The notes: generated by a model not told the origin, from the letters alone. Shown: positions 10,696 to 56,843, counted from the stretch's first letter. The stretch: 64,000 bases of DNA from a bacterium (GCA_043806735.1 JAZDGR010000052.1:9995-73994); one strand, 5' to 3'. Made by a program: numbers and translations.

Positions 10696-12633
10696 ATGGC
10701 TGAATTAAGTTCAAAAATTCCACAGGGTCCGGTGGCAGAAAAATGGACCCGGTATAAAGCTCATCAGAACCTGGTCAATCCTTCCAACAAACGGAAACTG
10801 GATGTACTTGTCGTGGGAACCGGTCTGGCCGGCGCTTCTGCGGCTGCCTCTCTCGGGGAGCTCGGGTTCAATGTCAAGATCTTCTGTTACCAGGATAGCC
10901 CTCGCCGGGCGCACAGCATTGCGGCCCAGGGCGGGATCAATGCGGCGAAAAACTATCCGAACGACGGCGACAGCATTTACAGGTTATATTACGACACAAT
11001 CAAGGGAGGCGACTACCGTTCGCGCGAAGCCAACGTATACCGGCTCGCGGAAGTGAGTAACGACATCATCGACCAGTGCGTGGCCCAGGGGGTTCCCTTT
11101 GCGCGCGAATACAGCGGGTTGCTGGAGAACCGTTCGTTTGGCGGAGCGCAGGTGTCTCGCACGTTTTATGCCCGCGGACAAAGCGGACAACAGCTGCTGC
11201 TCGGAGCTTACGGATCGCTGAGTCGCCAGATCAAGGAGGGTCAGGTCAAGATGTACAACCGGCATGAGATGATGGACGTAGTGATGGTGGATGGGAAAGC
11301 CCGTGGGATTATCGCGCGTGATCTGATCACCGGGGAACTGGAGCGTTATTTCGGCCATACCGTGATCATTGCTACCGGAGGGTATGGAAACGTTTTCTAC
11401 CTTTCCACCAATGCCATGGGTTCCAACACAAGCGCCATCTGGCAGATCTTCAAAAAAGGGGCTTTCTTTGCCAATCCCTGTTTTACCCAGATCCATCCCA
11501 CCTGCATCCCGGTTCACGGGGATTATCAGTCGAAGCTTACCCTGATGAGTGAGAGCCTCCGGAATGACGGCCGTATCTGGGTCCCGAAAAACAAGGAAAC
11601 TGCCGAAAAGGTCCGCAAAAGGGAACTAAAAGCCAACCAGGTCAAAGAGGAAGACAGGGATTATTTCCTCGAACGCAGATATCCTGCTTTCGGGAACCTG
11701 GTTCCGCGCGATGTAGCTTCACGGGCAGCCAAAGAGCGTTGCGATGCCGGGTACGGAGTTGGAGATACCGGGCTGGCCGTCTTCCTCGACTTTGCCGATT
11801 CCATCAAACGGCTCGGAAAGCACGTGATCGAAGAACGATATGGAAACCTTTTCCAGATGTATGAAAAGATCGTGGACGAAAACCCTTACGAAAATCCCAT
11901 GATGATCTTCCCGGCCGTCCACTATACCATGGGCGGGACCTGGGTTGATTACGAACTGATGAGCACCGTCCAGGGGCTGTTTGTTGCGGGAGAGGCCAAC
12001 TTTTCCGACCACGGCGCTAACCGTCTGGGGGCTTCTGCCCTGATGCAGGGGCTGGCCGACGGCTATTTCGTATTGCCTTATACCATCCAGAACTACCTCT
12101 CGGACCAGATTAATGTCCCCAGGATATCCACAGACAAACAGGAGTTTGCCGCTGCGGAACAAGCCGTCGCGGCAAGGCTTGAGAAACTGATGGTCATCAA
12201 GGGAACAAAATCGGTCGACCATTTTCACAAAGCCCTGGGAAAGATTATGTGGGAATATGTCGGAATGGGGAGAAACGCGGAGGGGTTAAAGAAGGCCATC
12301 GCCCTGATCAGGGAACTCCGGGAGGATTTCTGGAAAGAGGTAAAGATCCCCGGAAAAGCAAACGAAATGAATATCGAACTCGAGAAGGCCAACCGGGTAG
12401 CCGACTTCCTGGAACTCGGGGAGCTGATGGCCCTCGACGCCCTGGAGCGGAATGAAAGCTGTGGCGGCCATTTCCGCGAAGAGTTCCAGACCGAAGAAGG
12501 AGAGTGCTTGCGCGACGATAAAGATTATATGTATGTTGCCGCCTGGGAGTACAAAGGCGAAGGCGAATTCGTACTACATAAGGAGCCGCTTGTTTACGAA
12601 GAGATCGAGGTGAAGCAGCGGGTGTACAAATAG
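10696..12633 (+). CDS. sdhA: succinate dehydrogenase / fumarate reductase flavoprotein subunit
   Basis: 645 aa. FAD-binding motif [31 protein letters not shown], and the C-terminal [10 protein letters not shown]. Confidence 0.92.
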
Positions 12634-12661
12634 CGATTAGGGATTAGGGATTAGGGGTTAG
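12634..12661. repeat. heptanucleotide tandem array (GGATTAG)x4, left bracket of the four-helix-bundle cassette
   Basis: Reads cgattag ggattag ggattag gggttag and starts on the base after the sdhA TAG stop. Confidence 0.9.
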
Positions 12662-12669
12662 AATTGTAA

Positions 12670-13053
12670 ATGAATGTGCCAAAGAAAATAGTGTCGTATC
12701 ATGATTTGGAGGTCTGGAGGCGTGGCGTGGAATTAGTAAAACAGGTCTATAAGATAACATCTGGATTTCCAAAATCTGAGTTATATGGTATGACTTCTCA
12801 GATTCGCAGGGCTGCTATTTCATTTCCTGCAAATATCGCTGAGGGTTGGGGGCGGGAATCCTCAAAAAACTATATACAGTTTTTGCGAAATTCCAGAGGT
12901 TCTTTATTTGAATTGGATACATTGCTAATAATTACACAAGAACTCAGTTATATTTCAACCGATCAAAGTAATAATATCCGGAAGGAAATAAATGAGCTTG
13001 GAAAAATGTTAAACTCAATTATTCAAAAAATCAATGCAAGGATTTCGGAATAG
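12670..13053 (+). CDS. four-helix-bundle protein (23S rRNA intervening-sequence protein / Avd-like family)
   Basis: 127 aa. Family-typical text: YHDLEVWRRGVELVKQVYKITSGFPKSELYGMTSQIRRAAISFPANIAEGWGR...FLRNSRGSLFELDT. It is inserted between sdhA and sdhB. Confidence 0.85.
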   Translation: MNVPKKIVSYHDLEVWRRGVELVKQVYKITSGFPKSELYGMTSQIRRAAISFPANIAEGWGRESSKNYIQFLRNSRGSLFELDTLLIITQELSYISTDQSNNIRKEINELGKMLNSIIQKINARISE

Positions 13054-13070
13054 CTTTCTAGTTCCTCAAC

Positions 13071-13119
13071 CCTAATCGCTAATCCCTAATCCCTAATCCC
13101 TAATCCCTAATCGCTTATT
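13071..13119. repeat. heptanucleotide tandem array (CCTAATC)x6 plus one degenerate unit, right bracket, inverted relative to 12634-12661
   Basis: Reads cctaatc gctaatc cctaatc cctaatc cctaatc cctaatc gcttatt and ends on the base before the sdhB ATG (13120). CCTAATC is the reverse complement of GATTAGG. Confidence 0.9.
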
Positions 13120-13860: not shown

Positions 13861-13968
13861 CCCCTAAATCCCCACTTGCCCCCAAACCCCCTAAAGGGGG
13901 CTTATTCCCGCTTCGCGGGATTATCCTCCTGAAAAGGAGGAGTAAGTCCCCTTCAGGGGATTTAGGGG
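13861..13968. repeat. 108-bp nested-palindrome element (terminal inverted repeat CCCCTAAATCCCC / GGGGATTTAGGGG)
   Basis: Starts on the base after the sdhB stop. A 13-bp perfect terminal inverted repeat encloses the mini-hairpins ccccctaaaggggg, cccgcttcgcggg, cctcctgaaaaggagg and ccccttcagggg. Confidence 0.85.
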
Positions 13969-13983
13969 CAAACGAGACAAGAC

Positions 13984-15096
13984 ATGAAATTCATTGATAT
14001 CCAGACAGACAAAACAATCAAGCAGAAGTTGATCCAAACCATTCAGGATCAGCGAGTCAGCCATGCTCAGTTGTTTTATGGACCCGAAGGGTCAGGAAAA
14101 CTGGCCCTGGCCATCGCATATGCGCAGATGATTAATTGCACTGCCCCTAAATCCCCTGACTTACCCCCCGGCCCCCTAAAGGGGGAGGTTTCCCCCCAAG
14201 GGGGAAGTAAGTCCCCTTTAGGGGATTTAGGGGTGGACTCCTGCGGCATCTGCCCCTCCTGCATTCAGTTCCAGAAACTGGCCCATCCCGACCTCCACTT
14301 CTTTTATCCTACCGCTACCACGAAACAGGTTTCATCCAAGCCTTCCAGCAAACATTTCATCGAAGAGTGGAGGAAGTTTCTCCTGGAAAATAACTACCGG
14401 GTGAACCTGGCCGGGTGGTACGATTTCATCGGGATTGAAAACAAACAGGGGACGATCTATGCCGACGATGCCAACGAGATCAACCGCATCCTGAGTTACA
14501 AGAGCTATGAGTCGGAATACAAGGTCGTCATTATCTGGATGATCGAAAAACTGTTTCATGCAGCCGCGCCCAAGTTGCTCAAGATCCTCGAAGAACCACC
14601 CGAAAAGACACTGTTCATCCTGGTTTCCGACAACCCCGATCAGGTCATTCCGACCCTTGTATCCCGTTGCCTTCCGGTGAGGATTCCAAAGATTCAACCA
14701 GAGGAGACGCGGTTGACTTCGAAAGAGGATCAGGTTCTGTTTGAGACCTTCCGGAAATGGATGCGGATCTGTTTTGCCAACAACATTCCCGAACTAATCG
14801 GTTTTGCATCTGACGTGGGGAAAATCGGCAGGGAAAAGCAAAAAAGCCTTCTTCAGTACGGACTGGACCTTTCGGGAAACGCGCTCGCTCTCCGGCATGG
14901 GTTTTTCCGGGGATCAGCTTCCGGAGGCGAAGAATCGGAGTTCATAAAAAAGTTTTCGCCGTTCCTTTCCGAAACAAAACTGCTTCCCTTTTATACCCTG
15001 CTCAACTCCTCCATCTACCACATCGAACGCAACGCCCATGCGCCGACGCTCTTTCTTGATCTGTCGTTGAAGTTCACCGGGCTGCTCAAAAGATAA
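13984..15096 (+). CDS. holB: DNA polymerase III delta-prime subunit (clamp-loader), carrying a 30-codon repeat-derived insert
   Basis: 370 aa. It has GPEGSGK, the zinc-module-like CGICPSC...HPDLHFFYP and the SRC motif LVSRCL. An extra segment PKSPDLPPGPLKGEVSPQGGSKSPLGDLGV sits just before the Cys module. Confidence 0.8.
   Translation: MKFIDIQTDKTIKQKLIQTIQDQRVSHAQLFYGPEGSGKLALAIAYAQMINCTAPKSPDLPPGPLKGEVSPQGGSKSPLGDLGVDSCGICPSCIQFQKLAHPDLHFFYPTATTKQVSSKPSSKHFIEEWRKFLLENNYRVNLAGWYDFIGIENKQGTIYADDANEINRILSYKSYESEYKVVIIWMIEKLFHAAAPKLLKILEEPPEKTLFILVSDNPDQVIPTLVSRCLPVRIPKIQPEETRLTSKEDQVLFETFRKWMRICFANNIPELIGFASDVGKIGREKQKSLLQYGLDLSGNALALRHGFFRGSASGGEESEFIKKFSPFLSETKLLPFYTLLNSSIYHIERNAHAPTLFLDLSLKFTGLLKR
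14144..14233. repeat. 90-bp nested-palindrome element, same family as 13861-13968, in frame inside holB
   Basis: It has the same 13-bp termini (cccctaaatcccc ... ggggatttagggg), an inner inverted pair gacttac/gtaagtc, and the mini-hairpins ccccctaaaggggg and ccccccaaggggg. Length is 90 nt, i.e. 30 codons. Confidence 0.85.
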
Positions 15097-33944: not shown

Positions 33945-35726
33945 TTAATTTACACAGAACTTCACGGTCATATCATCCAGAAAAAAAGTAGTGCGGTGTT
34001 TATTCCAGCAGTACACCTTAATGTAAGAGTCAGTGTCGTACCATTCAGGGAGGGTAAATGTTGTAGTAATCTCGTTCCATTTCCCCATTTCCCTGAGTAC
34101 CGGATCTATCTCGAATGATTGCCATATGATTGATCGTCCTTCTTTTTCTACTGAGCATACAATCACAGCGCCCGTCAAACTATCTCCCGGATTCAACACC
34201 CATGAGTTCACCAGGATTTGGGTTGGAAACGCAAGGTCAAAGTCTTTTGCGGCTTTTATTACACCCCCGCAAAATTCAATGGAAGGATTAAAAACAGCAC
34301 AATGGGAATAGGAATGATACACCGAATCGGTTATGAAAAAATAGGAACGATCATCTGAAGGTTCATAGGTAATTGTCACCTTGTCCAGTGTTCGGTACAG
34401 GTGTATAAGGTCATCCGGGAGGATGCTTGCCTTTGTCAGATTCACTAAATACGTCCTGAAATCCCAGGTATCCGCTTTAAAACACATCGTATAATACCAG
34501 GAGGAAAGTATGTTGATATAGACGATAACAAGAAGGACTATTCCACCTGCAAACTTCCCAATCCAACGGGTATGATTCCATGCGGATTGCAGCAGAAATC
34601 CAAGGGGAATGCTGAAGACCGCATAGTACTCGATAAAACAACGGTGCCCGAAACCACAACCGAAGTACCAGGAGTACCAGGAAGCGCAAAGGTAGCTGAC
34701 CAACAGAAAGAGAAAAAGAAACTGCCATCCGTTGCGGATCTTTTTCAGGATCATCGCTCCCATTCCCAGGATCATAAGGATGGCGAGGGGTGTATTCAGG
34801 AAAAGGCCATTTTTTGGGGCAAACCACACCTCGAGGAGAAAGGGATGGCGCCAGTTCGTAAATCCTTCGTGATCATATGAATAAACCAGGAAAGAGCCAA
34901 AGCCATATTTCCAATAAAGCATCTGGGGGAATACGACAATCAACAGGCAGATCAGGAAGGTAAGCAGGTACTTCGGTTTCATAAAAATCGAGAACCTTGT
35001 GAAAAGAGCTTGCCCGGTTTGAACATTCCATAAGAAAAAGAGAAGGAGAATGATCCCGTTGATTGGCCGGATGATCACTGCCAGGGAAAAAGAAACCGAA
35101 AGTAACAAAAACCATTTCCATCGACGGGTTGCCATAAACCTCAGCAAGGCAAGCAGGTAAAGTGAAAACACAAAAAAAGAATAGATATGCGACATCGATG
35201 TTGCAATCATGGAATAATAGAAAAGATTCGTTCCTGTAAACACAAGCAGTAAAACAATGTACTGAATCAATGGCCGGAAAAACTCCCGGAGTACCTGTTT
35301 CAGGATCAGCAATCCCAGAATGAGATAGACAACAGCTGCCACATCGATCATGCGATGATAGATGGGGGAAAATCCTTTATCTTCAGAAATATTCAGGGCT
35401 TTTGCGATCCCATGAGCAGAGATAAAGAATGGGGAAAGCAGGGTGGATACTCCATAAAAATATTTGGTTTGAATGGTATTCTGTTCTTTATTCAGATGGA
35501 ACGCGTTTCCTGTTTTCTCTGCGATATTTTCCGGCAGCTTATCCGCTTCAAAGTCTGCAAAAAATAACGAAGGAAGATAGATATAGTACCCAGCTCCATC
35601 AGCCCAGATCACCCCTTTCCAGGTCAAATTATCGCGATTGTCATGGAGCAAGAATGTCAGCCCTAGTGAGATCATAAACAAGATCAGAAAAAACAGAAGA
35701 CCCGGAATGTCAGCTTTTTTCTTCAT
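33945..35726 (-). CDS. GT-C-like polytopic membrane protein (ArnT/PMT/YfhO-like architecture) with C-terminal CBM-like module
   Basis: 593 aa. Roughly 11-13 TM helices are followed by a ~150-aa soluble tail ending in KVYCWNKHRTTFFLDDMTVKF. It is a paralogue of the next gene. Confidence 0.5.
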   Translation of the reverse strand: MKKKADIPGLLFFLILFMISLGLTFLLHDNRDNLTWKGVIWADGAGYYIYLPSLFFADFEADKLPENIAEKTGNAFHLNKEQNTIQTKYFYGVSTLLSPFFISAHGIAKALNISEDKGFSPIYHRMIDVAAVVYLILGLLILKQVLREFFRPLIQYIVLLLVFTGTNLFYYSMIATSMSHIYSFFVFSLYLLALLRFMATRRWKWFLLLSVSFSLAVIIRPINGIILLLFFLWNVQTGQALFTRFSIFMKPKYLLTFLICLLIVVFPQMLYWKYGFGSFLVYSYDHEGFTNWRHPFLLEVWFAPKNGLFLNTPLAILMILGMGAMILKKIRNGWQFLFLFLLVSYLCASWYSWYFGCGFGHRCFIEYYAVFSIPLGFLLQSAWNHTRWIGKFAGGIVLLVIVYINILSSWYYTMCFKADTWDFRTYLVNLTKASILPDDLIHLYRTLDKVTITYEPSDDRSYFFITDSVYHSYSHCAVFNPSIEFCGGVIKAAKDFDLAFPTQILVNSWVLNPGDSLTGAVIVCSVEKEGRSIIWQSFEIDPVLREMGKWNEITTTFTLPEWYDTDSYIKVYCWNKHRTTFFLDDMTVKFCVN

Positions 35727-37606
35727 TACTCTTTTACGGGTTCCAGCAATTCGATCAAAAGGTCATCCATATAAAAAGGTTGTTTGCCGCGGTTCCAGAT
35801 ATAGACTGCCAGCACATCTTCCGCGTCGGTCACAAACGGAATCTCGTAATCCATACTTACGGGATTCCATTCCCCAACCTTCAGGGAATCATCTGCCAGC
35901 TGGATCGATTTGTATTTGTAGTTGTTTTCTTTCCCGGTCATGGTCACCACCAGGTTGGCCGGACTCTCTTTCATTTCAACGGTAGGGTAGACAAACAGGG
36001 TCACCCGGAGCCAGGAACCCTCTTTCGCTGCGAGCTCATTGTAGGCTACCTTAATCCCGGGGGAGAATTCAACGGTCGAGTCCATCTGATACGAATGGCT
36101 GCCAGCCTTCACGATGGTTCTGGAAAGATGCGGGTCCTGATCTGCCCCCTGGTATTCAAAGGTATAATTGGCAAGTACGCGCTTTGTAAACTGCTGACCC
36201 TCCTTCAGGAATTCGCGGTCGGAAGTTTCCACAACCTCCAGCAGTTTTTTGCTGGATTCTTCCACGTGTGTCCGACCAAAAATAGCCCAGTAGTATTCTT
36301 TCGTCATCCGCGACGGGTCAATGATCCAGGTCATGTACTGCCAGGTCTGGAACAGGTTAAGCCAGATAAAGAAAGCTGCAACAACGAAGAACACCAGCTT
36401 CAGCCAGATGCGGCGACGAAAGATCCAGGTGATGAATGCCCCGAAGGGGATCGCCAGTAAGGCATAGGATTGCATGAGGGACCGTTGGCCCAGACTGCCA
36501 CCATACCACCAGGTTGTCCAGGAGGAGACGATGAGCAGGTTGACGGTAAAAAAAAGGAATGCTGCCCAGAAGAGTTCCCGTTTCTGCCGCCAGAGGAAGA
36601 TAAAACCTGCCACCGGAAAACACATCATGGGAGCATAGATCAGCCAGCCCTTTTTCCAGGAAAAGAGGACAAACATGATGTAAGGCGCCAGGAACCGCAA
36701 TCCCTCCCCTTCTTCGTAACTGTAATACAAAAATCTCCCGGAATAGATCTTCCAGTAGATTAATTGGACTGAACCCACCAGCAATACGCACAAACCCATA
36801 CCAATGACCTGTGACCAGTGACTAGTGACTAGTGACAATTTTTTCTGCAGGGTATCTTTATTCCATATACCCCAGAGCAGGGGGATCAGTGCACTGATGA
36901 TCTCGGTAGGACGAATCAGGACCGCGAGGCCCACAAACAAACCCAGCGGTATGGCAAATCTCCATTTCGGCGTTTCATGCCATTTCATGGTAAACCAGAT
37001 GATGAGGGCATAAATGGCAAACAGCGTGTTGTGCACCATTGCCCCGTCGTATGCGGTAAGCTGGAAAAAGTTGGTTCCCAGGATCAGAAGTACCATGACA
37101 ACCGAGGTGACAACATCCGAAAAGTACCTGATCAGGATCTTGCGCAGAAACCAGATGCCGATGACGGTATAAATGAGGCATCCCATGGCAATGGAAAACT
37201 GGTAGGGCAGTGAAAACCCGTCTTGGACATAACCGAGAGCACCTGCCAGCCAATGGGCAAGAAAGAAAAAGGGTGAGAACAAAATAGCCATCCCCATCGG
37301 GTATTTCAGGATGTAGTGCTCTTCGGGGCCCATATAGGCCTGATAAAACCCGATGGTGGGTCCATATTTGTCGAGGATCTGCTGAAGCCAGGAGAAATCG
37401 GATATTCCCAGGTCATGATAGATGAACTTTGCCGGAAGGTAGAGGTAATAACCAAAAACATCCCATGAGAGGATCGAAAGTACATCATAGGTCAGCCAGC
37501 GCGGGAGTAAAAACCTGCCCAGAATTACTCCGGCCGATAAAATCAGAAAGGTAACGCCGGAGATTGGGGCAACTGCTTTATTCTTCACCATTAAACCGGT
37601 TGTCAC
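35726..37606 (-). CDS. GT-C-like polytopic membrane protein (ArnT/PMT/YfhO-like architecture) with C-terminal CBM-like module
   Basis: 626 aa with the same architecture as 33945-35726. The tail ends in [21 protein letters not shown]. It overlaps the GT2 gene by 4 nt and the next GT-C-like gene by 1 nt. Confidence 0.5.
36802..36836. repeat. heptanucleotide array, 5 units (nnGTGAC), translated in frame inside the GT-C-like gene
   Basis: Plus strand: caatgac ctgtgac cagtgac tagtgac tagtgac. On the coding strand it is read as TTG TCA CTA GTC ACT AGT CAC TGG TCA CAG GTC ATT, giving [12 protein letters not shown]. Confidence 0.85.
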
Positions 37607-38373
37607 TTTGTGTATTTCCTGTCAAAAATGTTGTACCGGATCAGGCAGATCACGGCTCTCAGCGCATCTTTCATCCGGATTTTCTTTCCTTCTTCATAGG
37701 TTCTTCCGTAGTAGGAGATGCCCACTTCATAGATCCGGATCCCCGGAAACCGTGCGATTTTGGAGGTGACTTCCGGCTCAAAGCCAAACCGCTGCTCCTT
37801 AAAATGGATTTGTTTCAGGAACCCGGCACGGAACAGCTTGTAGCAGGTCTCCATGTCGGTAAGGTTGAGGTTGGTAAAGAGGTTGGAGACGAAGGTCAGG
37901 ATCTTATTCCCGATCGAGTGCCAGAAAAAGAGGATCCGGTGGGGACGGCCTCCCATGAAACGGGAACCATATACCACATCGGCGACGCCATCCAGCATAG
38001 GTTTTAACAGCACTTCATATTCCTGGGGATCATATTCCAGGTCGGCATCCTGAATAATAATGAACTCCCCTGTTGCCAGCTCAATGCCTTTATGGATTGC
38101 TGCACCTTTGCCCTGGTTGAAGGGCTGTGAGAAGAACTGGATAGTGGTGACTGGTGACTGGTGACTGGTGACTGGTGACTTTTCAATGTACTCTTTGACG
38201 ATCTCTCCCGTATTATCCGTTGAGGCGTCGTTGGTGACAATGATCTCTTTTTTGAGTCCGCCGGGCAGGGTCGCCGAAAAGACCTTGTCAAGGATCCGGG
38301 TGATGGTTTTTCCCTCGTTAAAAGCCGGGATCAGGATGGAAAGTGTTTGATCCATGGAAGTAGAATTATTCAT
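37603..38373 (-). CDS. family 2 glycosyltransferase, small soluble polyprenyl-phosphate-sugar-synthase-like type
   Basis: 256 aa. [21 protein letters not shown] and the DxD motif [12 protein letters not shown], plus NQGKGAA. It contains the repeat-derived segment [11 protein letters not shown]. Confidence 0.8.
38145..38179. repeat. heptanucleotide array (TGGTGAC)x5, translated in frame inside the GT2 gene
   Basis: Five perfect units. The coding strand (TCACCAG)n is read as [11 protein letters not shown]. Confidence 0.9.
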
Positions 38374-40921
38374 GAAAATAGATGCGTTTCACGCGTCTTG
38401 AAATACTGGTCAGGATCTCATACGGTATCGTCTCCAGGGTTTTGGCCAGCTCCGTTACCGGGAAGTCGTCCCCGAAAATGATCACCAACTCCCCTTCGTT
38501 CACGGGGGTTCCGCTTTGCACAATCTGCGTAATGTCCAGCATGCAAAGATCCATGCAAATGTTGCCGATCACCGGGGCGCGAACCCCTTTCACCAGCAGG
38601 TGCCCGCGTCCATTTCCCAGTTTGCGGTCTAATCCGTCGGCATATCCCACCGGGACTATTGCTATGAGGCTGTCCTTATATGCTTTTCCGATGCGGTTAT
38701 AGCCGATGGTTTCTCCTGCTTGTATGGTTTTAATCTGGGTGATGACCGATCGTAAAGTGCTCACATTCCGCAGGCGCTTTTGCTCGACTTCATCATACCC
38801 TACCCCGTAAAGGCCGATCCCCAGCCGGACCATCTCGAACTGACCCTCTGGGAACCGGCTGATTCCTGCCGAATTCAGAATGTGCCTTAACACCGGGTAT
38901 CCGACAGCTTGCCTGATTTTTTCGCTCATTTCGATAAACTTGCGGAACTGTTCGCCCGTAAAGGGATCCAGATTCGGGTCTTCGCTTCCCGCAAGATGGG
39001 AGAATACGGAACAAACCCGAATGGTGTGACTTCCCGTGATTCTTTCGATCAATGCATCGAGCTCGTCGGGACAAAAACCCAGCCGGTGCATCCCGGTATC
39101 CAGCTTGATATGGATTGGAACGGCTTCCCTGGACCCGGTCGGATTCCGGTCAATGGCTTCCTCCAGCATGCGCAGGATCCGGTGGTTGTATATCTCCGGT
39201 TCAAGGTTGTAATTCAAAAGCGTTTCAATGCTCTCTTCTTCCGGACTCATCACCATAATGGGCAGACTGATGCCGGCGTTTCGCAGTTCGACGCCTTCAT
39301 CGGCATAGGCAACAGCCAGGTAATCGACATGATTGAACTGAAGCAGGTTGGCGATCTCGTAGCTTCCACTGCCGTATGAAAAGGCTTTTACCATCGCCAT
39401 AATTTTTACACCCGGTTTCAGTTTGGCCTTATAGAAGTTGAGGTTGTGAACCAGGGCATCCAGGTTGATCTCCAGTACCGTTTCATGCGATTTTTGCTGC
39501 AATGCCTGGCTGATCCGCTCAAATCCGAACAGGCGGGCGCCTTTCAGGAGAATGGTCTCGTCGCGAAAGGACGAGAGCGGGAAGTGATTTAGGAACTCAT
39601 CAGTAGTTTCAAAGAAGGCTTTCTGCATCGGAAACTGATGCAGGTTCCGTGAAATATCCGGACCGATTCCGATGATCCGGTCAATTTTTTTCTCCGCCAG
39701 GATCCTGGCGATTGTTCCGTACAGTTCCTCCTGGCTACGGCCTGTTTGCAGGATATCCGACAGGATCAGGGTCTTTTTCCGGTGCTGGTTCTGCTGCACG
39801 AGGAAATCCAGGGCAATGCCCAGCGAATTGATGTCGGAATTGTAGCTGTCGTTGATGAGGGAGCAATGGTTGATCGCCTCCTTGAGTTCGAGGCGCATGG
39901 CGACGGAAGTCAGGAGGGGGAACCGATCGGTGATACGAGATACGGGATCCGGGATTCCTAACACCATCGTCAACGCCCAGCAGTGAATTGCGTTTTCAAC
40001 AGAAGCTTCGTCGGTGAAAGGGATGGTTATTTCGATCTCTTTTTGTTGATATAATCCCCGGATGCAGGAATGTCCCTGCTCTTTTCGGATCTCTTTGATC
40101 ATCAGGTCATCTCTTTCCCCGCTCCCCCATGTAAACCGCTTCAATGCCGTGTATTTTTCCGACCGCTCAAGCAGGTCGCCGATCATCCGATAGTCTGACC
40201 GGTAGATCAGGATATCAGAGTGCACAAAAATCTTCAGCTTCTCTTCCGCTTTTCCTTCATATCCGCTGAAGTGTTCATCATGCGCCGGGCCGATGTTGGT
40301 GAGGATCCCGATGGTCGGTCTGATGATCTCTTCCAGCCGGTCCATTTCCCCGGGTTGTGAAATTCCGGCTTCAAAAATAGCCAGGTCATATCGGGGTTCC
40401 ATTTTCCAGACCGACAGGGGTACTCCGAGTTGGGAATTGAAGCTTTTGGGACTGCGGATCACTTGGAAATCCGGAGAAAGCAACTGGTACAGCCATTCTT
40501 TCACGATGGTCTTCCCGTTGCTTCCCGTGATCCCGATTACCGGATATCCGAATTGCTTCCTGTGATGGGCGGCGAGTTGCTGGAGGGCAGTCAGGGTGTC
40601 GGAGACCAGGATAAAGACAGGATCCCGTTGCTTCGCTGCGCTCGCAATGACAATGTTTCCTGCCAACTGCCAACTGCCAACTGCCAACTGCAAATTGCTG
40701 ATCAGGAAGCACTTCACGCCCTTTTCCGCCAGCTCCCGGATGTACCGGTGACCATCGTTCCGGCCGCTTACAAGGGCAATAAAGAGGGTCCCTTCGGGAT
40801 TTGCAAGCCGCCTGCTATCAATGAGCAATTCTGATATGGCCGGATCTGCCGGAGCTGAAGAAATCACCTCCCCGTCGGTGATCCGGGCGATCTCGCTGGC
40901 GTTATATTGAAGCACACTCAT
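38366..40921 (-). CDS. murF: bifunctional UDP-MurNAc-tripeptide--D-Ala-D-Ala ligase (MurF) / alanine racemase (Alr) fusion
   Basis: 851 aa. Mur ligase P-loop GITGSNGKT in the N-terminal half. Alr PLP-site block [12 protein letters not shown] and the C-terminal PVGYADG in the second half. It carries a repeat-derived insert [24 protein letters not shown]. Confidence 0.85.
40661..40695. repeat. heptanucleotide array (TGCCAAC)x4 plus one degenerate unit, translated in frame inside murF-alr
   Basis: Reads tgccaac x4 then tgcaaat. The coding strand (CAGTTGG)n is read as [11 protein letters not shown]. Confidence 0.9.
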
Positions 40922-41997: not shown

Positions 41998-42002
41998 ATT
42001 TC

Positions 42003-42026
42003 TATTTTCCTAATTTCCTATTTTCC
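42003..42026. repeat. octanucleotide array (TAWTTTCC)x3 abutting the pdxA start
   Basis: Reads tattttcc taatttcc tattttcc. On the pdxA strand it reads GGAAAATA GGAAATTA GGAAAATA GAAAT ATG. Confidence 0.8.
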
Positions 42027-42880: not shown

Positions 42881-42901
42881 TCACGTCTCACGTTTCACGT
42901 C
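42881..42901. repeat. heptanucleotide array (TCACGTY)x3, preceded by aggtcag-g-aggtcag
   Basis: Reads tcacgtc tcacgtt tcacgtc. It lies between the barrel gene start and the response-regulator promoter. Confidence 0.75.
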
Positions 42902-53300: not shown

Positions 53301-53721
53301 CGACGATCCGGGTAACCCCGCCCGTGTTGTAAGTATCCCAGTCGCCGTACAATCCGATGTTGCTTTGCTTCAGATCCGACAAGTTGTTGAAAATGATGAA
53401 CTGGATCTTATCCTCCAGTCCCGACTGCAGCATCAGCTCGATCTCCCGGATGTGCTGGTCGGCATATTCGGCCGTAAACTGTGCCAATTCCTTTCCGTTG
53501 AGGTAATAATAGGTGTCAAATTTGTCGAACCGGAAATAGGTCCAGAAGAAGTCGTTAAACTGCACCCGGCTCTTCCCGAAATTGAGCTGGGAGCCGTTGT
53601 AAAACTGGGCATGTAGAGAAGGAAGAAGGAAGAGGGAAGCGGGAAGAGGGAAGAGGGAAGAAGTAAGAAGAACAGTACGGAGAACGACAGTGAAAAGTCG
53701 GTGGTTTCTTTTTCCAGGCAT
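50368..53721 (-). CDS. large outer-membrane protein: N-terminal peptidase-MA-like region, TolB-like beta-propeller, C-terminal Omp85/BamA-like barrel
   Basis: Start moved to MPGKRNHRLFTVVLRTVLL, which gives a signal peptide. TolB-like repeats: SPDSRIVAYTT, WHPSGKILAI, YSGDGALLAFSAV...SDIFVYN, PGSGEIIFSSNR. The C-terminus ...IFYFSLSLDF ends in an OMP beta-signal Phe. Confidence 0.55.
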   Translation of the reverse strand: MPGKRNHRLFTVVLRTVLLTSSLFPLPASLFLLPSLHAQFYNGSQLNFGKSRVQFNDFFWTYFRFDKFDTYYYLNGKELAQFTAEYADQHIREIELMLQSGLEDKIQFIIFNNLSDLKQSNIGLYGDWDTYNTGGVTRIVGGRVMLYFDGDYAHFEEQIRSGIATVILNQMMYGTGIGAQIKNNALFTMPEWYMNGLISYISTKWNTEVDNIVRDAVLGGKYRKFNRLTGIEATWAGHSLWHYISVRYGEAAIPNIVYMARLSRNIEKGFLYVVGLPYKTLLDDWLAYYQALYSTQDFDRTNPVGQLLNRKYKPNRVYRQLKLSPDSRIVAYTTHELGIYKVYLLDIETGKKKRIYRAGYRLAERPDYTFPFLAWHPSGKILAILTERKGENWLYFYNVEEKLFDHQILYNFQKILDMGYSGDGALLAFSAVQKGKSDIFVYNIAAGSHEQLTNDVYDDFNPRFLPGSGEIIFSSNRVSDTVRFYPEVDLEKLTFINDIFVYNYRAKSPLLKRITHTPLANEIQPMPYADGLFCYLSDENGIYNRYLARFDSVISYIDTATHYRYFTTAFPVTNYKRNIVEQDLSLAAAGIGEVVVGQQYSRMYRMDMMLPGQVSSATLKPTTFMDRERKKVELQEAISKGDTVIKPIEIIAKPGKKHFRTVLLSDVIGDLQPADARDSSYLKMLQKKHGMIRTPQDTTSLMTLLNTPVQDTLNKYKQAKALNYNVEYAIDEMVTQIDFTYLNTSYQPFSGGLQPVFINPGLNVLFMVGVTDLMEDYRISGGVRLNFDLVNNEYIFSYLNCKRRLDQQIIYHRIGVDEFGVYSYIRHKVNELYYIAKYPFTPVLNVSGTASIRYDRAVYLSTDQLNLKQPDVNTIWGSLKGELTYDNTRNYGVNLYYGTRYKFFGEYYQTVNKPGNNVFILGMDIRHYQKIHRTMIWANRLAASTSFGSNKLVYYMGGVDNWLWPRFDMNTPVAFDQNYVFQTLATNLRGFQQNIRNGNSFFVINSEIRLPVFRYFFNRPIRSDFLNNFQVVAFGDLGTAWTGISPWSEDNQLFKKYIYRNPLFIQVEMIKDPLVGGFGGGLRTRLLGYFLRADLAWGVEDGHIRKPIFYFSLSLDF
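53617..53672. repeat. purine/pyrimidine heptanucleotide array, 8 units (AGARGGA-like), encoding the signal-peptide core of the Omp85-like protein
   Basis: Plus strand: agaagga agaagga agaggga agcggga agaggga agaggga agaagta agaagaa. The coding strand is read as LLTSSLFPLPASLFLLPS, followed by LHAQ. Confidence 0.85.
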
Positions 53722-54741: not shown

Positions 54742-55737
54742 ATGAAGATTCTGGTAATCCGGTTCAGTTCTATCGGCGACATCGTCCTGACGACCCCTAT
54801 TGTCCGGTGCCTCAAGGAGCAGTTGCCTAACGTGGAGATCCATTACCTCACCAAGAAGCAATATATCCCGGTCCTTCAGGCAAATCCATATATTACTAAG
54901 ATTCAGCTTTACAAAGAGAACTTCCGGGAGCTGGTTCCGAAGCTGAAAGCCGAACGGTTTGACCGGATCATTGATCTGCATAAAAACATCCGTTCCCATT
55001 ACATCCGGTTTTGTTTACGGAAACCTGCCACTTCATTTCCCAAAGTTAATTTTCAGAAGTGGCTGATGACCCGGTGGAAGATTGACCTGCTGCCCCCTAT
55101 TCACCTTGTAGACAGGTATTTTAAGGCAGTGGAACCGTTGGGCATCCGGAATGACGGTAACGGACTGGATTATTTTTTACCTGATCCGGGACAATTTTCC
55201 GTTTACGAGAGATTTCCCGATCTCACAGGTAGGTTCATCGCGATTGCTATCGGCGCCCGGCATGCTACCAAAATCTATCCGGCCGCCAAGGTGTCTGAAC
55301 TGTGCGATCTGTTGCCTTTGCCTGCGATTCTGCTGGGAGGAAAAGAGGATATGGCACGCGGGGAAGAGATCATCAGGATAACCCGCGCAAAGGTCTTCAA
55401 TGCCTGCGGACTGCTCACCCTCAACGAATCGGTTTCGGTAATCTTCCAGGCTGTTCAGGTAATTTCCAACGACACCGGGATGATGCACATCGCGGCAGCC
55501 CTGAAGAAGCCGGTGATCAGCCTTTGGGGAAACACTATTCCCGGATTCGGCATGTACCCGTATTTCCCCGAAGAGTGCAGCCATCTTTCGACCCTGGTTG
55601 AAGTGAAGAGCTTGTCCTGTCGTCCCTGCAGCAAGCTGGGGTACCCAGAATGTCCGAAAAAACACTTCGATTGCATGGAGAAGATCGACCCGAAGGCTGT
55701 TGTGGAGGCAGTGAGGCTGGTAAACAGTGAACAATGA
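54742..55737 (+). CDS. family 9 glycosyltransferase (LPS heptosyltransferase-like)
   Basis: 331 aa. MKILVIRFSSIGDIVLTTP, the C-terminal half ISNDTGMMHIAAAL and PCSKLGYPECP. The last residues and the stop codon lie inside the CAGTGAA array. Confidence 0.8.
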   Translation: MKILVIRFSSIGDIVLTTPIVRCLKEQLPNVEIHYLTKKQYIPVLQANPYITKIQLYKENFRELVPKLKAERFDRIIDLHKNIRSHYIRFCLRKPATSFPKVNFQKWLMTRWKIDLLPPIHLVDRYFKAVEPLGIRNDGNGLDYFLPDPGQFSVYERFPDLTGRFIAIAIGARHATKIYPAAKVSELCDLLPLPAILLGGKEDMARGEEIIRITRAKVFNACGLLTLNESVSVIFQAVQVISNDTGMMHIAAALKKPVISLWGNTIPGFGMYPYFPEECSHLSTLVEVKSLSCRPCSKLGYPECPKKHFDCMEKIDPKAVVEAVRLVNSEQ

Positions 55738-55766
55738 ACAGTGAACAGTGAATAGTGAACAGTGAC
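55725..55766. repeat. heptanucleotide array (CAGTGAA)x6 with variants
   Basis: Reads cagtgaa caatgaa cagtgaa cagtgaa tagtgaa cagtgac. It spans the GT9 stop (55735-55737) and ends 3 nt before the tatD ATG. Confidence 0.9.
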
Positions 55767-55769
55767 CGC

Positions 55770-56549
55770 ATGGCAGTTTTTGCAGATACCCACGCACACC
55801 TTTACCTGGAAGCGTTCGATGAGGATCGGGAGGAGGTCATCAGGCGTGCAGTTGAGGCGGGAGTACATTACCTTTTTCTGCCAAACATAGACACATCGAG
55901 TATCCCGTATCTCGCATCTCTTATCTCACAGCATCCCGGCTATTGCTTCCCCATGATGGGCCTTCATCCCGGTTCCGTGAAAAATGACTTCCGGGAGCAA
56001 CTGGGAGTCATTGAAATGGAACTCCGGCAAAACCCCGGAAAATACTGTGCGGTGGGTGAGATCGGGATTGACCTATACTGGGATAAGACATTTGCCAAAG
56101 AGCAGGAGGTTGTGTTTGTCAGGCAACTGGAACTGGCACTGGAGTTTAACCTCCCGGTCGCTATCCATACCCGCAATTCGATGGAACTTGCGCTGAAGTT
56201 GGTGGAAGGAATGAAGGATCCGGCCCTGTGCGGAGTGTTTCACTGTTTCAGCGGAAACCTTGCGCAAGCGAACCGGGCGATTGAACTGGGATTCAGACTG
56301 GGGATTGGTGGGGTAGTCACTTTCAAGAACTCCGGTTTGCAGACTGTGGTGGAGGAAATTGAGCTCGAACACCTGCTTCTGGAGACCGATGCTCCTTACC
56401 TGGCGCCAGTGCCGTTCCGGGGCCAGCGCAACGAACCGTCTTATATTCCGTATATTGCGGAGAAGCTAGCGGAATTGAAAAAGCTGTCTGTGGAAGAGGT
56501 AGCGGCAGTTACGACGGAAAGCGCGTTGAAGTTATTCGGTTTGCATTAG
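55770..56549 (+). CDS. tatD: TatD family metal-dependent hydrolase/nuclease
   Basis: Start moved to MAVFADTHAHLY (HxH motif). Further blocks: GEIGIDLYW, VAIHTRNS, FHCFSG, LLLETDAPYLAP. Confidence 0.85.
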   Translation: MAVFADTHAHLYLEAFDEDREEVIRRAVEAGVHYLFLPNIDTSSIPYLASLISQHPGYCFPMMGLHPGSVKNDFREQLGVIEMELRQNPGKYCAVGEIGIDLYWDKTFAKEQEVVFVRQLELALEFNLPVAIHTRNSMELALKLVEGMKDPALCGVFHCFSGNLAQANRAIELGFRLGIGGVVTFKNSGLQTVVEEIELEHLLLETDAPYLAPVPFRGQRNEPSYIPYIAEKLAELKKLSVEEVAAVTTESALKLFGLH

Positions 56550-56555
56550 GGATAC

Positions 56556-56587
56556 AGGCACCAAGGCACAGAGGCACAGAGGCACAA
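56556..56587. repeat. octanucleotide array (AGGCACAG)x4 with variants
   Basis: Reads aggcacca aggcacag aggcacag aggcacaa and starts 7 nt after the tatD stop. Confidence 0.85.
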
Positions 56588-56669: not shown

Positions 56670-56716
56670 CAATCCAAAAAAAACAGAGAATAACGAAAAG
56701 TGAAAAACGAATAACT

Positions 56717-56744
56717 ATTCACTATTCACTGTTCACTGTTCACT
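56717..56744. repeat. heptanucleotide array (RTTCACT)x4, inverted relative to 55725-55766
   Basis: Reads attcact attcact gttcact gttcact (gtttag). TTCACTG is the reverse complement of CAGTGAA. It ends 5 nt before tRNA-Ser. Confidence 0.9.
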
Positions 56745-56749
56745 GTTTA

Positions 56750-56837
56750 GGAGAGATGTCCGAGTGGTCTAAGGAGCACGCCTGGAGAGCGTGTAATCGC
56801 CAAAAGTGGTTCATGGGTTCGAATCCCATTCTCTCCG
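56750..56837 (+). tRNA. tRNA-Ser (anticodon GGA)
   Basis: Folded by hand. Acceptor GGAGAGA/TCTCTCC, anticodon stem CACGC/GCGTG with loop CTGGAGA, long variable arm, T-arm ATGGG-TTCGAAT-CCCAT, discriminator G. 88 nt. Confidence 0.9.
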
Positions 56838-56843
56838 CCCTCC

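Follow-up and report, generated by a model that had tools for sequence, protein, structure and literature searches.

A 64,000-nucleotide stretch of DNA from a Bacteroidota genome (GCA_043806735.1 JAZDGR010000052.1:9995-73994; this whole stretch is hereafter the window) carries three short tandem arrays of heptanucleotide units within three consecutive genes, which encode a GT-C-like membrane glycosyltransferase, a family 2 glycosyltransferase (GT2) and a MurF-Alr fusion. The arrays are read in frame as part of each protein. They belong to a known kind of repeat, the heptanucleotide repeats resembling short tandemly repeated repetitive (STRR) sequences, in a lineage that is unusually rich in them. 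We consider it probable that they are ordinary members of this lineage-wide simple-sequence population, translated passively at permissive sites. Nothing indicates that they work as contingency switches, a role that an earlier inspection of the DNA alone (the sequence-only reading) had suggested for them.

Heptamer arrays in the window and its clade

Array 1 (36802..36836, minus strand) was delimited from Tandem Repeats Finder (TRF) output and the sequence itself, and has the imperfect coding-strand structure (GTCACTR)n with about five units. Its plus-strand units are CAATGAC, CTGTGAC, CAGTGAC, TAGTGAC and TAGTGAC, the first being degenerate, and TRF placed it at 36800-36836 with a period of 7, 5.3 copies and 86% matches. 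The host GT-C/PMT_2-like gene (35726..37606, minus strand; Pfam PMT_2) encodes 626 aa. Array 2 (38145..38180, minus strand) lies in the GT2 gene (37603..38373, minus strand; 256 aa; Pfam Glycos_transf_2) and comprises 5.1 copies of GTCACCA on the coding strand, or TGGTGAC on the plus strand, with 100% matches by TRF. Array 3 (40660..40695, minus strand) lies in the murF-alr fusion gene (38366..40921, minus strand; 851 aa; Pfam Mur_ligase and Ala_racemase) and comprises 4.6 perfect coding-strand copies of CAGTTGG plus one degenerate unit; TRF recovered the perfect portion at 40660-40691 (plus-strand CTGCCAA x4.6, 100% matches), and the degenerate unit reaches 40695.

All three arrays fall within long, intact minus-strand open reading frames (ORFs). 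The sequence, TRF, the ORFs and Pfam together bear out the claim of the sequence-only reading that the arrays are coding DNA read in frame, and the seven-residue peptide motifs that it had assigned to each array are present in the ORF translations. As 35 nt is less than 12 codons, each motif is repeated only about 1.6 times. An assembly artefact was considered and rejected, given that the arrays are only about 35 bp long, that the ORFs are intact, and that independent assemblies of relatives bear arrays at matching sites.

To place these arrays in context, we applied one scoring rule to each period from 4 to 15, counting as an array any run of at least 3 units and using shuffled sequence as a control. 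The window yielded 8 arrays of period 7 and none at any other period in this range, against approximately none in the shuffles, and the excess was stable across score thresholds. The five further period-7 arrays start at 12631, 13068, 53617, 55720 and 56710. The nearest reference genome to this Bacteroidota host is a Prolixibacteraceae metagenome-assembled genome (MAG; locus L054), with identities of 65% for MurF-Alr, 78% for GT2 and 67% for GT-C. For a like-for-like comparison based on murF neighbourhoods, we set the window and eight loci of close relatives (200 kb) against 79 other Bacteroidota loci (1.19 Mb). The clade set contained 27 period-7 arrays, 4 of period 8, and none of periods 4-6 or 9-12; the other Bacteroidota loci contained 3 period-7 arrays. 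The density of period-7 arrays is thus approximately 54-fold higher in the clade, and the three arrays are part of a large period-7 excess that holds both in the window and across related loci.

Coding DNA makes up 93% of the window and holds 4 of its arrays; the other 4 occupy the remaining 7%, which is intergenic or at a gene edge, so that arrays are some 13 times as dense outside genes. The fourth in-gene array (53617..53661, minus strand; plus-strand AGAAGGA/AGAGGGA) encodes TSSLFPLPASLFLLPS and with it the hydrophobic core of the signal peptide (TSSLFPLPASLFLLPSLHA-Q) predicted for a PD40-repeat protein of 1144 aa. All four in-gene arrays of the window are in envelope-related proteins, but this is too small a sample to claim a preference for envelope genes, and the relatives' loci are biased toward this neighbourhood. 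TRF also reported weaker period-7 tracts at 39932-39955 (GATACGG x3.4, inside murF-alr), 42881-42901 (TCACGTC x3.0) and 55900-55927 (GTATCTC x4.0, inside tatD), and period-8 tracts at 41998-42026 (ATTTCCTA x3.8) and 56556-56586 (AGGCACAG x3.9, just downstream of tatD). These weaker tracts may be decayed arrays.

Head-to-tail 7-nt units, excess number, intergenic preference and lineage-restricted abundance are all features of STRR-like long heptanucleotide repeats, and all are present here. Like the STRR sequences of the cyanobacteria Calothrix, Nostoc and Anabaena, the arrays are tandem 7-nt units, numerous in each genome, mostly intergenic and lineage-specific. They differ in having a Bacteroidota host and very diverse units, and in persisting at orthologous sites in conserved, partly essential genes; with such a host and such units, they are not cyanobacterial STRR sequences in the strict sense. 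Several units are nonetheless within one base of TTGGTCA, CAACAGT or CCCCAGT, which we take to be canonical STRR units, and the GT-C array of one relative (L084) is exactly (TTGGTCA)n.

Heptanucleotides are the commonest class of long simple repeats in most prokaryotic genomes, with polymerase slippage proposed as their source (Mrazek 2007, as cited in PMC4679880 and PMC4692102). In Xanthomonas and Nostoc, heptamer arrays fall mainly between genes, are rarer than expected in coding DNA and frequently form convergent inverted pairs (PMC4692102). As described in those sources, both the simple sequence repeats (SSRs) of Mrazek 2007 and the GGGAATC and GGGGAYT arrays of Xanthomonas and Nostoc share the period-7 excess and intergenic bias seen here; convergent inverted pairs are common in Xanthomonas, and the GGGATTA arrays of the window resemble the GGGGATT unit. 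Heptamer direct repeats have moreover been published for five Bacteroidetes, and translated in-ORF arrays for Beggiatoaceae and cyanobacteria (PMC4679880). The suggestion that such arrays are unusual in Bacteroidota was therefore overstated.

Array sites and their unit turnover

The MurF array segment has no counterpart in any of 45 aligned orthologues. The segment belongs to an insertion of 12-14 residues in an N-terminal-domain loop, is missing from the solved MurF structures 4QDI and 4ZIY, and falls between two strands of that domain. The GT2 array is a 12-residue insertion relative to orthologues of 244 aa (alignment of 120 homologues), in a loop that is an insertion hotspot, with inserts of 0-58 aa in the approximately 30 nearest relatives. 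In an AlphaFold model of GT2, residues 66-75 form a coil between a helix (55-65) and a strand (76-82), with pLDDT below 50 at residues 69-72, at a distance from the DxD motif. As these structures and the model depict them, the MurF and GT2 arrays sit in surface loops. At the GT-C site, however, we found no indel among approximately 75 orthologues, down to 47% identity, so this array does not represent an insertion; its segment can be aligned with K-W-x-L-I/V-R-x-H-x-x-Q-V. Insertion at a permissive protein site thus describes MurF and GT2 and fails for GT-C. The sequence-only reading had proposed orthologue alignment as the way to define inserted residues, and this succeeded for MurF and GT2, whose residues are absent from distant orthologues, but revealed no length difference in GT-C.

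The gene order pdxA, murF-alr, GT2, GT-C is kept in the DNA of relatives, with heptamer arrays at matching positions and often with other units. Arrays do occur in three consecutive genes, as had been claimed, but this is no local peculiarity, as arrays are found clade-wide at the matching sites of these genes. In the MurF N-terminal loop the unit is GGCAGTT in the window and two relatives (L081, L082), GGCAGTG in L084 and AAAAGCG in L085, and there is no array in L054; the window array is in register with those of L081, L082 and L084. In the GT2 loop, units of the form CAGT-NNN occupy one register directly 3' of GAA-AAG, where NNN is CAC in the window, TGG in L081 and L082, and GGG in L084 and L166. 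The GT-C site, an old array site common to the clade, carries GTCACTR in the window, GTCATTG in L084 (nearly perfect) and GGTTTCA in L085 (perfect), at identical length in all. Perfect arrays at sites in proteins that are only 65-80% identical imply continuing renewal. We found no description of orthologous in-gene heptamer array sites in Bacteroidota in the literature searched.

MurF-Alr has a second insertion hotspot, the linker before the C-terminal Mur ligase domain (near residue 330), where four relatives carry unrelated arrays or elements: CTCGCAA x7.4 in L054 (L054:10935-10986), AATTACG x4 in L081 (L081:7619-7646), ATCCAGT in L084, and a 45-residue insert resembling a miniature inverted-repeat transposable element (MITE) in L082. 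The window has nothing at this position.

The GT2 loops of relatives suggest how arrays arise. The insert-free loop of L167 reads GGA-TCA-GGC-ATC-CGT (G-S-G-I-R), and in L168 and L166 the same loop contains (GGCATCC)x3.3 ending in the native GGC-ATC-CGG, a gain of 3 units, or 21 nt, which adds 7 residues (SGIRHPA). Lineages with a native CAG codon instead carry (GCATCCA)n, read SSIQHPA, and the MurF array starts inside the conserved strand codons GTG-GGC-AGT. Such continuity with native codons favours tandem duplication on the spot over the arrival of a foreign element.

The same continuity bears on whether preformed short elements, MITE-like or resembling the Rickettsia palindromic elements (RPEs), were inserted in frame into permissive loops. 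RPEs are tolerated in frame in housekeeping genes (PMC10969869), and the likeness extends to short repeated DNA lying in frame at permissive positions of unrelated housekeeping genes. Identical units do occur in different genes, and the loops of relatives hold both element-like GGSKSPLGDLG-type inserts bounded by GGGGATTTAGGGG inverted repeats and a TCATTGCGAG...AGCGAAGC motif; an in-frame GGSKSPLGDLG-type copy is also present in a holB-like ORF of the window. RPEs, however, are palindromes of about 150 bp with a family consensus, whereas the arrays are direct 7-nt repeats grown from native codons, with units that vary by site and lineage and with no terminal inverted repeats, conserved consensus or target duplications. 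They extend the native codons with which they are continuous, and the GT-C array entails no insertion at all. We regard an origin of the arrays by element insertion as distinctly unlikely.

Elements with inverted termini are nevertheless present nearby. A MITE-like element with the inverted repeat GCCCCTAAATCCCC...GGGGATTTAGGGG and internal G/C hairpins occurs at 13861-13968 and 14144-14233, one copy lying in the sdhB-holB spacer and the other in frame inside the holB-like ORF (13984..15096), where it is read KSPDLPPGPLKGEVSPQGGSKSPLGDLG; this GGGGATTTAGGGG-bounded copy does have the inverted termini and consensus that the heptamer arrays lack. Peptides of the GGSKSPLGDLG or KSPSGDLG type fill the GT2 and MurF hotspot loops of relatives (P0014, P0019, P0021, L082 and L168). 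Directly downstream of array 3 on the coding strand is the motif TCATTGCGAGCGCAGCGAAGC (40630..40650, minus strand; one exact match in the window), which reads VIASAAK and belongs to the extra MurF loop sequence. In the general form TCATTGCGAG(n)AGCGnAGC, this motif is confined to protein loops of the clade (window MurF, L085:10183-10203 and L166:910-933) and is read in differing frames: the window MurF has VIASAAK, and GT2 proteins of relatives have HCHCERSEA or VSLREAERP. It had no match in 1.2 Mb of other Bacteroidota DNA, nor in 80 loci carrying a PF05635 gene (described below).

Selection might instead act on the peptides themselves, which could serve as flexible linkers or take part in interactions. 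In favour of this, the clade as a whole has kept the sites, and the GT-C segment is constant in length and preserves an H-W/R pattern. Against it, a given site encodes unrelated peptides in different lineages (SPVTSHQ, VGSWQLA, AVSSPQS), inserts vary from 0 to 58 aa, disorder is predicted for the loop, and what is conserved is the nucleotide period, not the amino-acid sequence. Protein-level selection of the repeat peptides is accordingly very unlikely.

Reading frame, stop codons and stability

Once a perfect array has 3 or more units, translation passes through it in every phase, so a unit can last within a gene only if its coding strand has no stop trinucleotide. Arrays 2 and 3 consist of such stop-free units, and array 2 would be unreadable on the opposite strand, where TGGTGAC includes TGA. 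The arrays of TAGGGAT and AACAGTG at gene boundaries, conversely, have stops in all phases, and provide the stop codons of sdhA (TAG) and of a GT9 gene (TGA). Similar stop-codon logic was described for TAACTGA repeats by MacGregor 2015 (PMC4679880).

In array 1, units 1 and 4 begin in frame, as TTG and TGG, and both TAG-bearing units are out of phase. The sequence-only reading had proposed that an A-to-G change spared the unit whose TAG would be in frame, as direct evidence that selection kept the ORF open after the array arose. Its codon phase was right, but the direction of change was reversed. At the in-frame codon relatives have TGG, CGG or AGG, and in a codon alignment the TAG units of the window correspond to CTG/TTG/CTC and GGT/GGC/AGT; TGG is therefore ancestral and the TAG forms of the window are derived. 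The TAG forms arose by G-to-A changes in harmless phases, one synonymous (CTG to CTA) and one replacing Gly with Ser (GGT to AGT). In-frame stops are plainly excluded by selection, but array 1 is not a rescued stop.

We propose that a tandem duplication process specific to period 7, most likely replication slippage or misalignment, acts across the genomes of this clade and duplicates native 7-nt segments in place. Selection would then filter the products, leaving arrays common in intergenic DNA and admitting them to genes under three conditions only: the unit would need to lack a stop codon in every coding-strand phase, the net length change would need to be a multiple of 3 (for example, 3 units, giving 21 nt and 7 residues), and the site would need to tolerate a low-complexity peptide. 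Candidate tolerant sites are the MurF N-terminal surface loop, the GT2 helix-to-strand loop, the GT-C juxtamembrane segment and the signal peptide. The encoded peptides would be near-neutral and passively translated, at sites that are old and common to relatives, and repeated re-homogenisation or replacement of the sequence would account for units that differ between lineages.

Because a 7-nt unit shifts the frame, gain or loss of a single unit could instead switch these envelope genes on or off, as the sequence-only reading had suggested. The envelope-related function of the host genes fits such a role, and heptamer phase-variable repeats exist in Haemophilus influenzae (PMC8262952, PMC12721329). 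The tandem repeats of contingency loci in Haemophilus and Neisseria likewise lie within genes and have units of a length not divisible by three. We compared unit number in relatives, the window proteins being found on a single contig in a 15-billion-protein collection. Within seven clusters at 90% identity or more (approximately 100 contigs of relatives), the GT2 repeat loop showed no length difference; all length differences in these clusters were terminal and came from gene-call differences. Two samples of one related species (L082 and L083) differed by 4 single-nucleotide polymorphisms and no indels over 20.9 kb containing several arrays. Substitutions in the GT2 loop outpaced those in the rest of the protein, with 12 of 25 variable columns in one cluster falling in the loop. 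In these relatives, the arrays are stable within species.

The arrays further differ from contingency loci in being short (about 5 units) and in lying at conserved sites with intact ORFs across many lineages. In addition, one host gene, murF-alr, encodes two essential peptidoglycan steps, so that an OFF state would be lethal. Slippage-based phase variation is thus unsupported, and we judge it highly improbable that these arrays are contingency loci; they add no new phase-variation system.

Inverted array pairs and a possible sequence-biased process

Heptamer arrays also occur in the window as inverted pairs. A gene for a PF05635 23S-rRNA intervening-sequence (IVS) protein, of a four-helix-bundle family, occupies 12670..13053, between the sdhA stop and the sdhB start. 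Its upstream arm, (TAGGGAT)n (12631..12661, plus strand), begins with the sdhA stop codon, and its downstream arm, (CCCTAAT)n (13068..13115, plus strand), ends 5 nt before the sdhB start codon. Written as (GGGATTA)n and (TAATCCC)n, the arms are 97% complementary over 30 nt, and RNA folding predicts that they join in a stem of 30 bp around the ORF (z = -6.7). Scanning metagenomes with this protein gave 80 loci (L086-L165) at 45-78% identity, of which 74 had usable flanks. An inverted repeat scoring at least 14 brackets the IVS gene in 49 of these 74 loci, compared with 0 of 50 displaced control windows. Autocorrelation of the arms was 0.79 at period 7 versus 0.21-0.38 at periods 5, 6, 8 and 9; 41 of the 49 arms are clear heptamer arrays, with many different units, and the upstream arm is G-rich (41% G, 11% C).

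IVS-protein genes are thus usually enclosed by inverted heptamer arrays, an arrangement for which we found no description in the searchable literature and which appears to be new. An Rfam scan assigned no family to any array or cassette, two tRNAs being the sole matches. A similar bracket surrounds tatD (55755..56549), between (AACAGTG)n and (CACTGTT)n arms that are 94% complementary over 36 nt. The upstream arm, (AACAGTG)n (55720..55765, plus strand), contains the GT9 gene stop and overlaps the tatD start region, and the downstream arm, (ACTGTTC)n (56710..56749, plus strand), adjoins tRNA-Ser(GGA) at 56750-56839.

We considered whether the in-gene arrays are footprints of IVS cassettes and found no support: the cassette arms are G-rich, of the GGGATTA type, with stops in every phase, whereas the in-gene arrays are stop-free, mostly of the CAGT type, and solitary. 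The TCATTGCGAG...AGCGAAGC motif was likewise rejected as a cassette component, being present in 0 of 80 such loci.

Several observations weigh against the view that the in-gene arrays are ordinary, passively translated members of the heptamer population. The CAGTTGG/CAGTGGG unit family is found in both the MurF and the GT2 loops of the same genomes. Of the 27 units, 11 contain a CAGT/ACTG core, versus 5.5% expected (nominal P of 8e-8, with orthologous sites non-independent), which unbiased slippage does not predict and which hints at a sequence-biased mechanism, ectopic conversion or a function. Arrays 2 and 3 are 100% perfect at old sites, so renewal is ongoing, and the GT-C site has changed its unit and not its length, which simple expansion and contraction explain awkwardly. 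Long CAGTTGG/CCAACTG arrays also occur in distant phyla (Microcoleus, Thiocystis, Yersinia ruckeri, Aeromonas, Lonsdalea and Sedimenticola), where they are mis-called as tiny hypothetical proteins of (QLAVGSW)n; a protein-database search with (QLAVGSW)x6 returned almost only such spurious ORFs over long arrays, and informs taxonomic spread rather than in-gene arrays. We also count the restriction of the polymorphism comparison to relatives on this side.

An alternative is that a dedicated, heptamer-specific and CAGT-biased process makes or maintains the arrays, or that nucleic-acid motifs are selected, for example as binding sites or RNA elements in the murF-alr/GT2/GT-C operon transcript, with the peptide as a side effect. 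Under either version, conservation of array sites while units turn over, perfect arrays at old sites, core enrichment, and the recurrence of the CAGTTGG/CAGTGGG family in two genes and of CAGTTGG in distant phyla would all find a place. Inverted heptamer arrays are clearly structural around IVS-protein genes, and regulator binding was proposed by MacGregor for TAACTGA arrays (PMC4679880). Arrays are, however, missing without obvious consequence from the MurF loop of L054 and the GT2 loop of L167, units at one site can be unrelated (AAAAGCG versus GGCAGTT), many arrays have no CAGT core, loop substitutions are faster than in the rest of the protein, and we identified no candidate enzyme or binding protein. 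We therefore rate sequence-specific writing and motif function, taken together, as rather unlikely. A bolder proposal, which we hold to be quite improbable, is that one dedicated, sequence-biased process, mechanistically linked to the PF05635 cassettes, writes and re-homogenises heptamer arrays at fixed sites, even in essential genes and with length unchanged, in this clade, some cyanobacteria, Beggiatoaceae, Xanthomonas and other lineages.

A close published parallel is provided by the TAACTGA repeats (MacGregor 2015, PMC4679880), which are also heptamer arrays of 2-6 or more units with an ACTG core. Forward TAACTGA arrays have stops in all phases and lie at gene ends, and reverse arrays are translated as a seven-residue repeat (LSVISYQ, including in a MurG; PMC4679880); in both systems arrays survive at the protein periphery. 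In that system, though, a single unit predominates, sits immediately 5' of start codons and was proposed to act in regulation (PMC4679880), whereas the arrays described here have many units, show no start-codon preference, and occupy internal loops of conserved enzymes at sites common to relatives. Mrazek 2007, as cited above, and PMC4692102 describe neither orthologous in-gene array sites nor what inverted pairs enclose.

If the arrays are indeed ordinary members of a heptamer population translated at permissive sites, a strong lineage-specific mutational bias toward 7-nt tandem duplication introduces low-complexity peptides into enzymes that are conserved and in some cases essential. A small set of loops has repeatedly taken up heptamer arrays and other short repeat elements, and so charts where MurF, GT2 and GT-C enzymes naturally permit insertions; such arrays also call for caution in annotating and aligning MAG proteins. 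Orthologous array sites with unit turnover offer a tractable system for asking why period 7 dominates the long simple repeats of bacteria. The bracketing of IVS-protein genes may be the more novel lead, as it ties an abundant gene family of unknown function to heptamer repeats and suggests RNase III-type processing or mobility of the cassettes.

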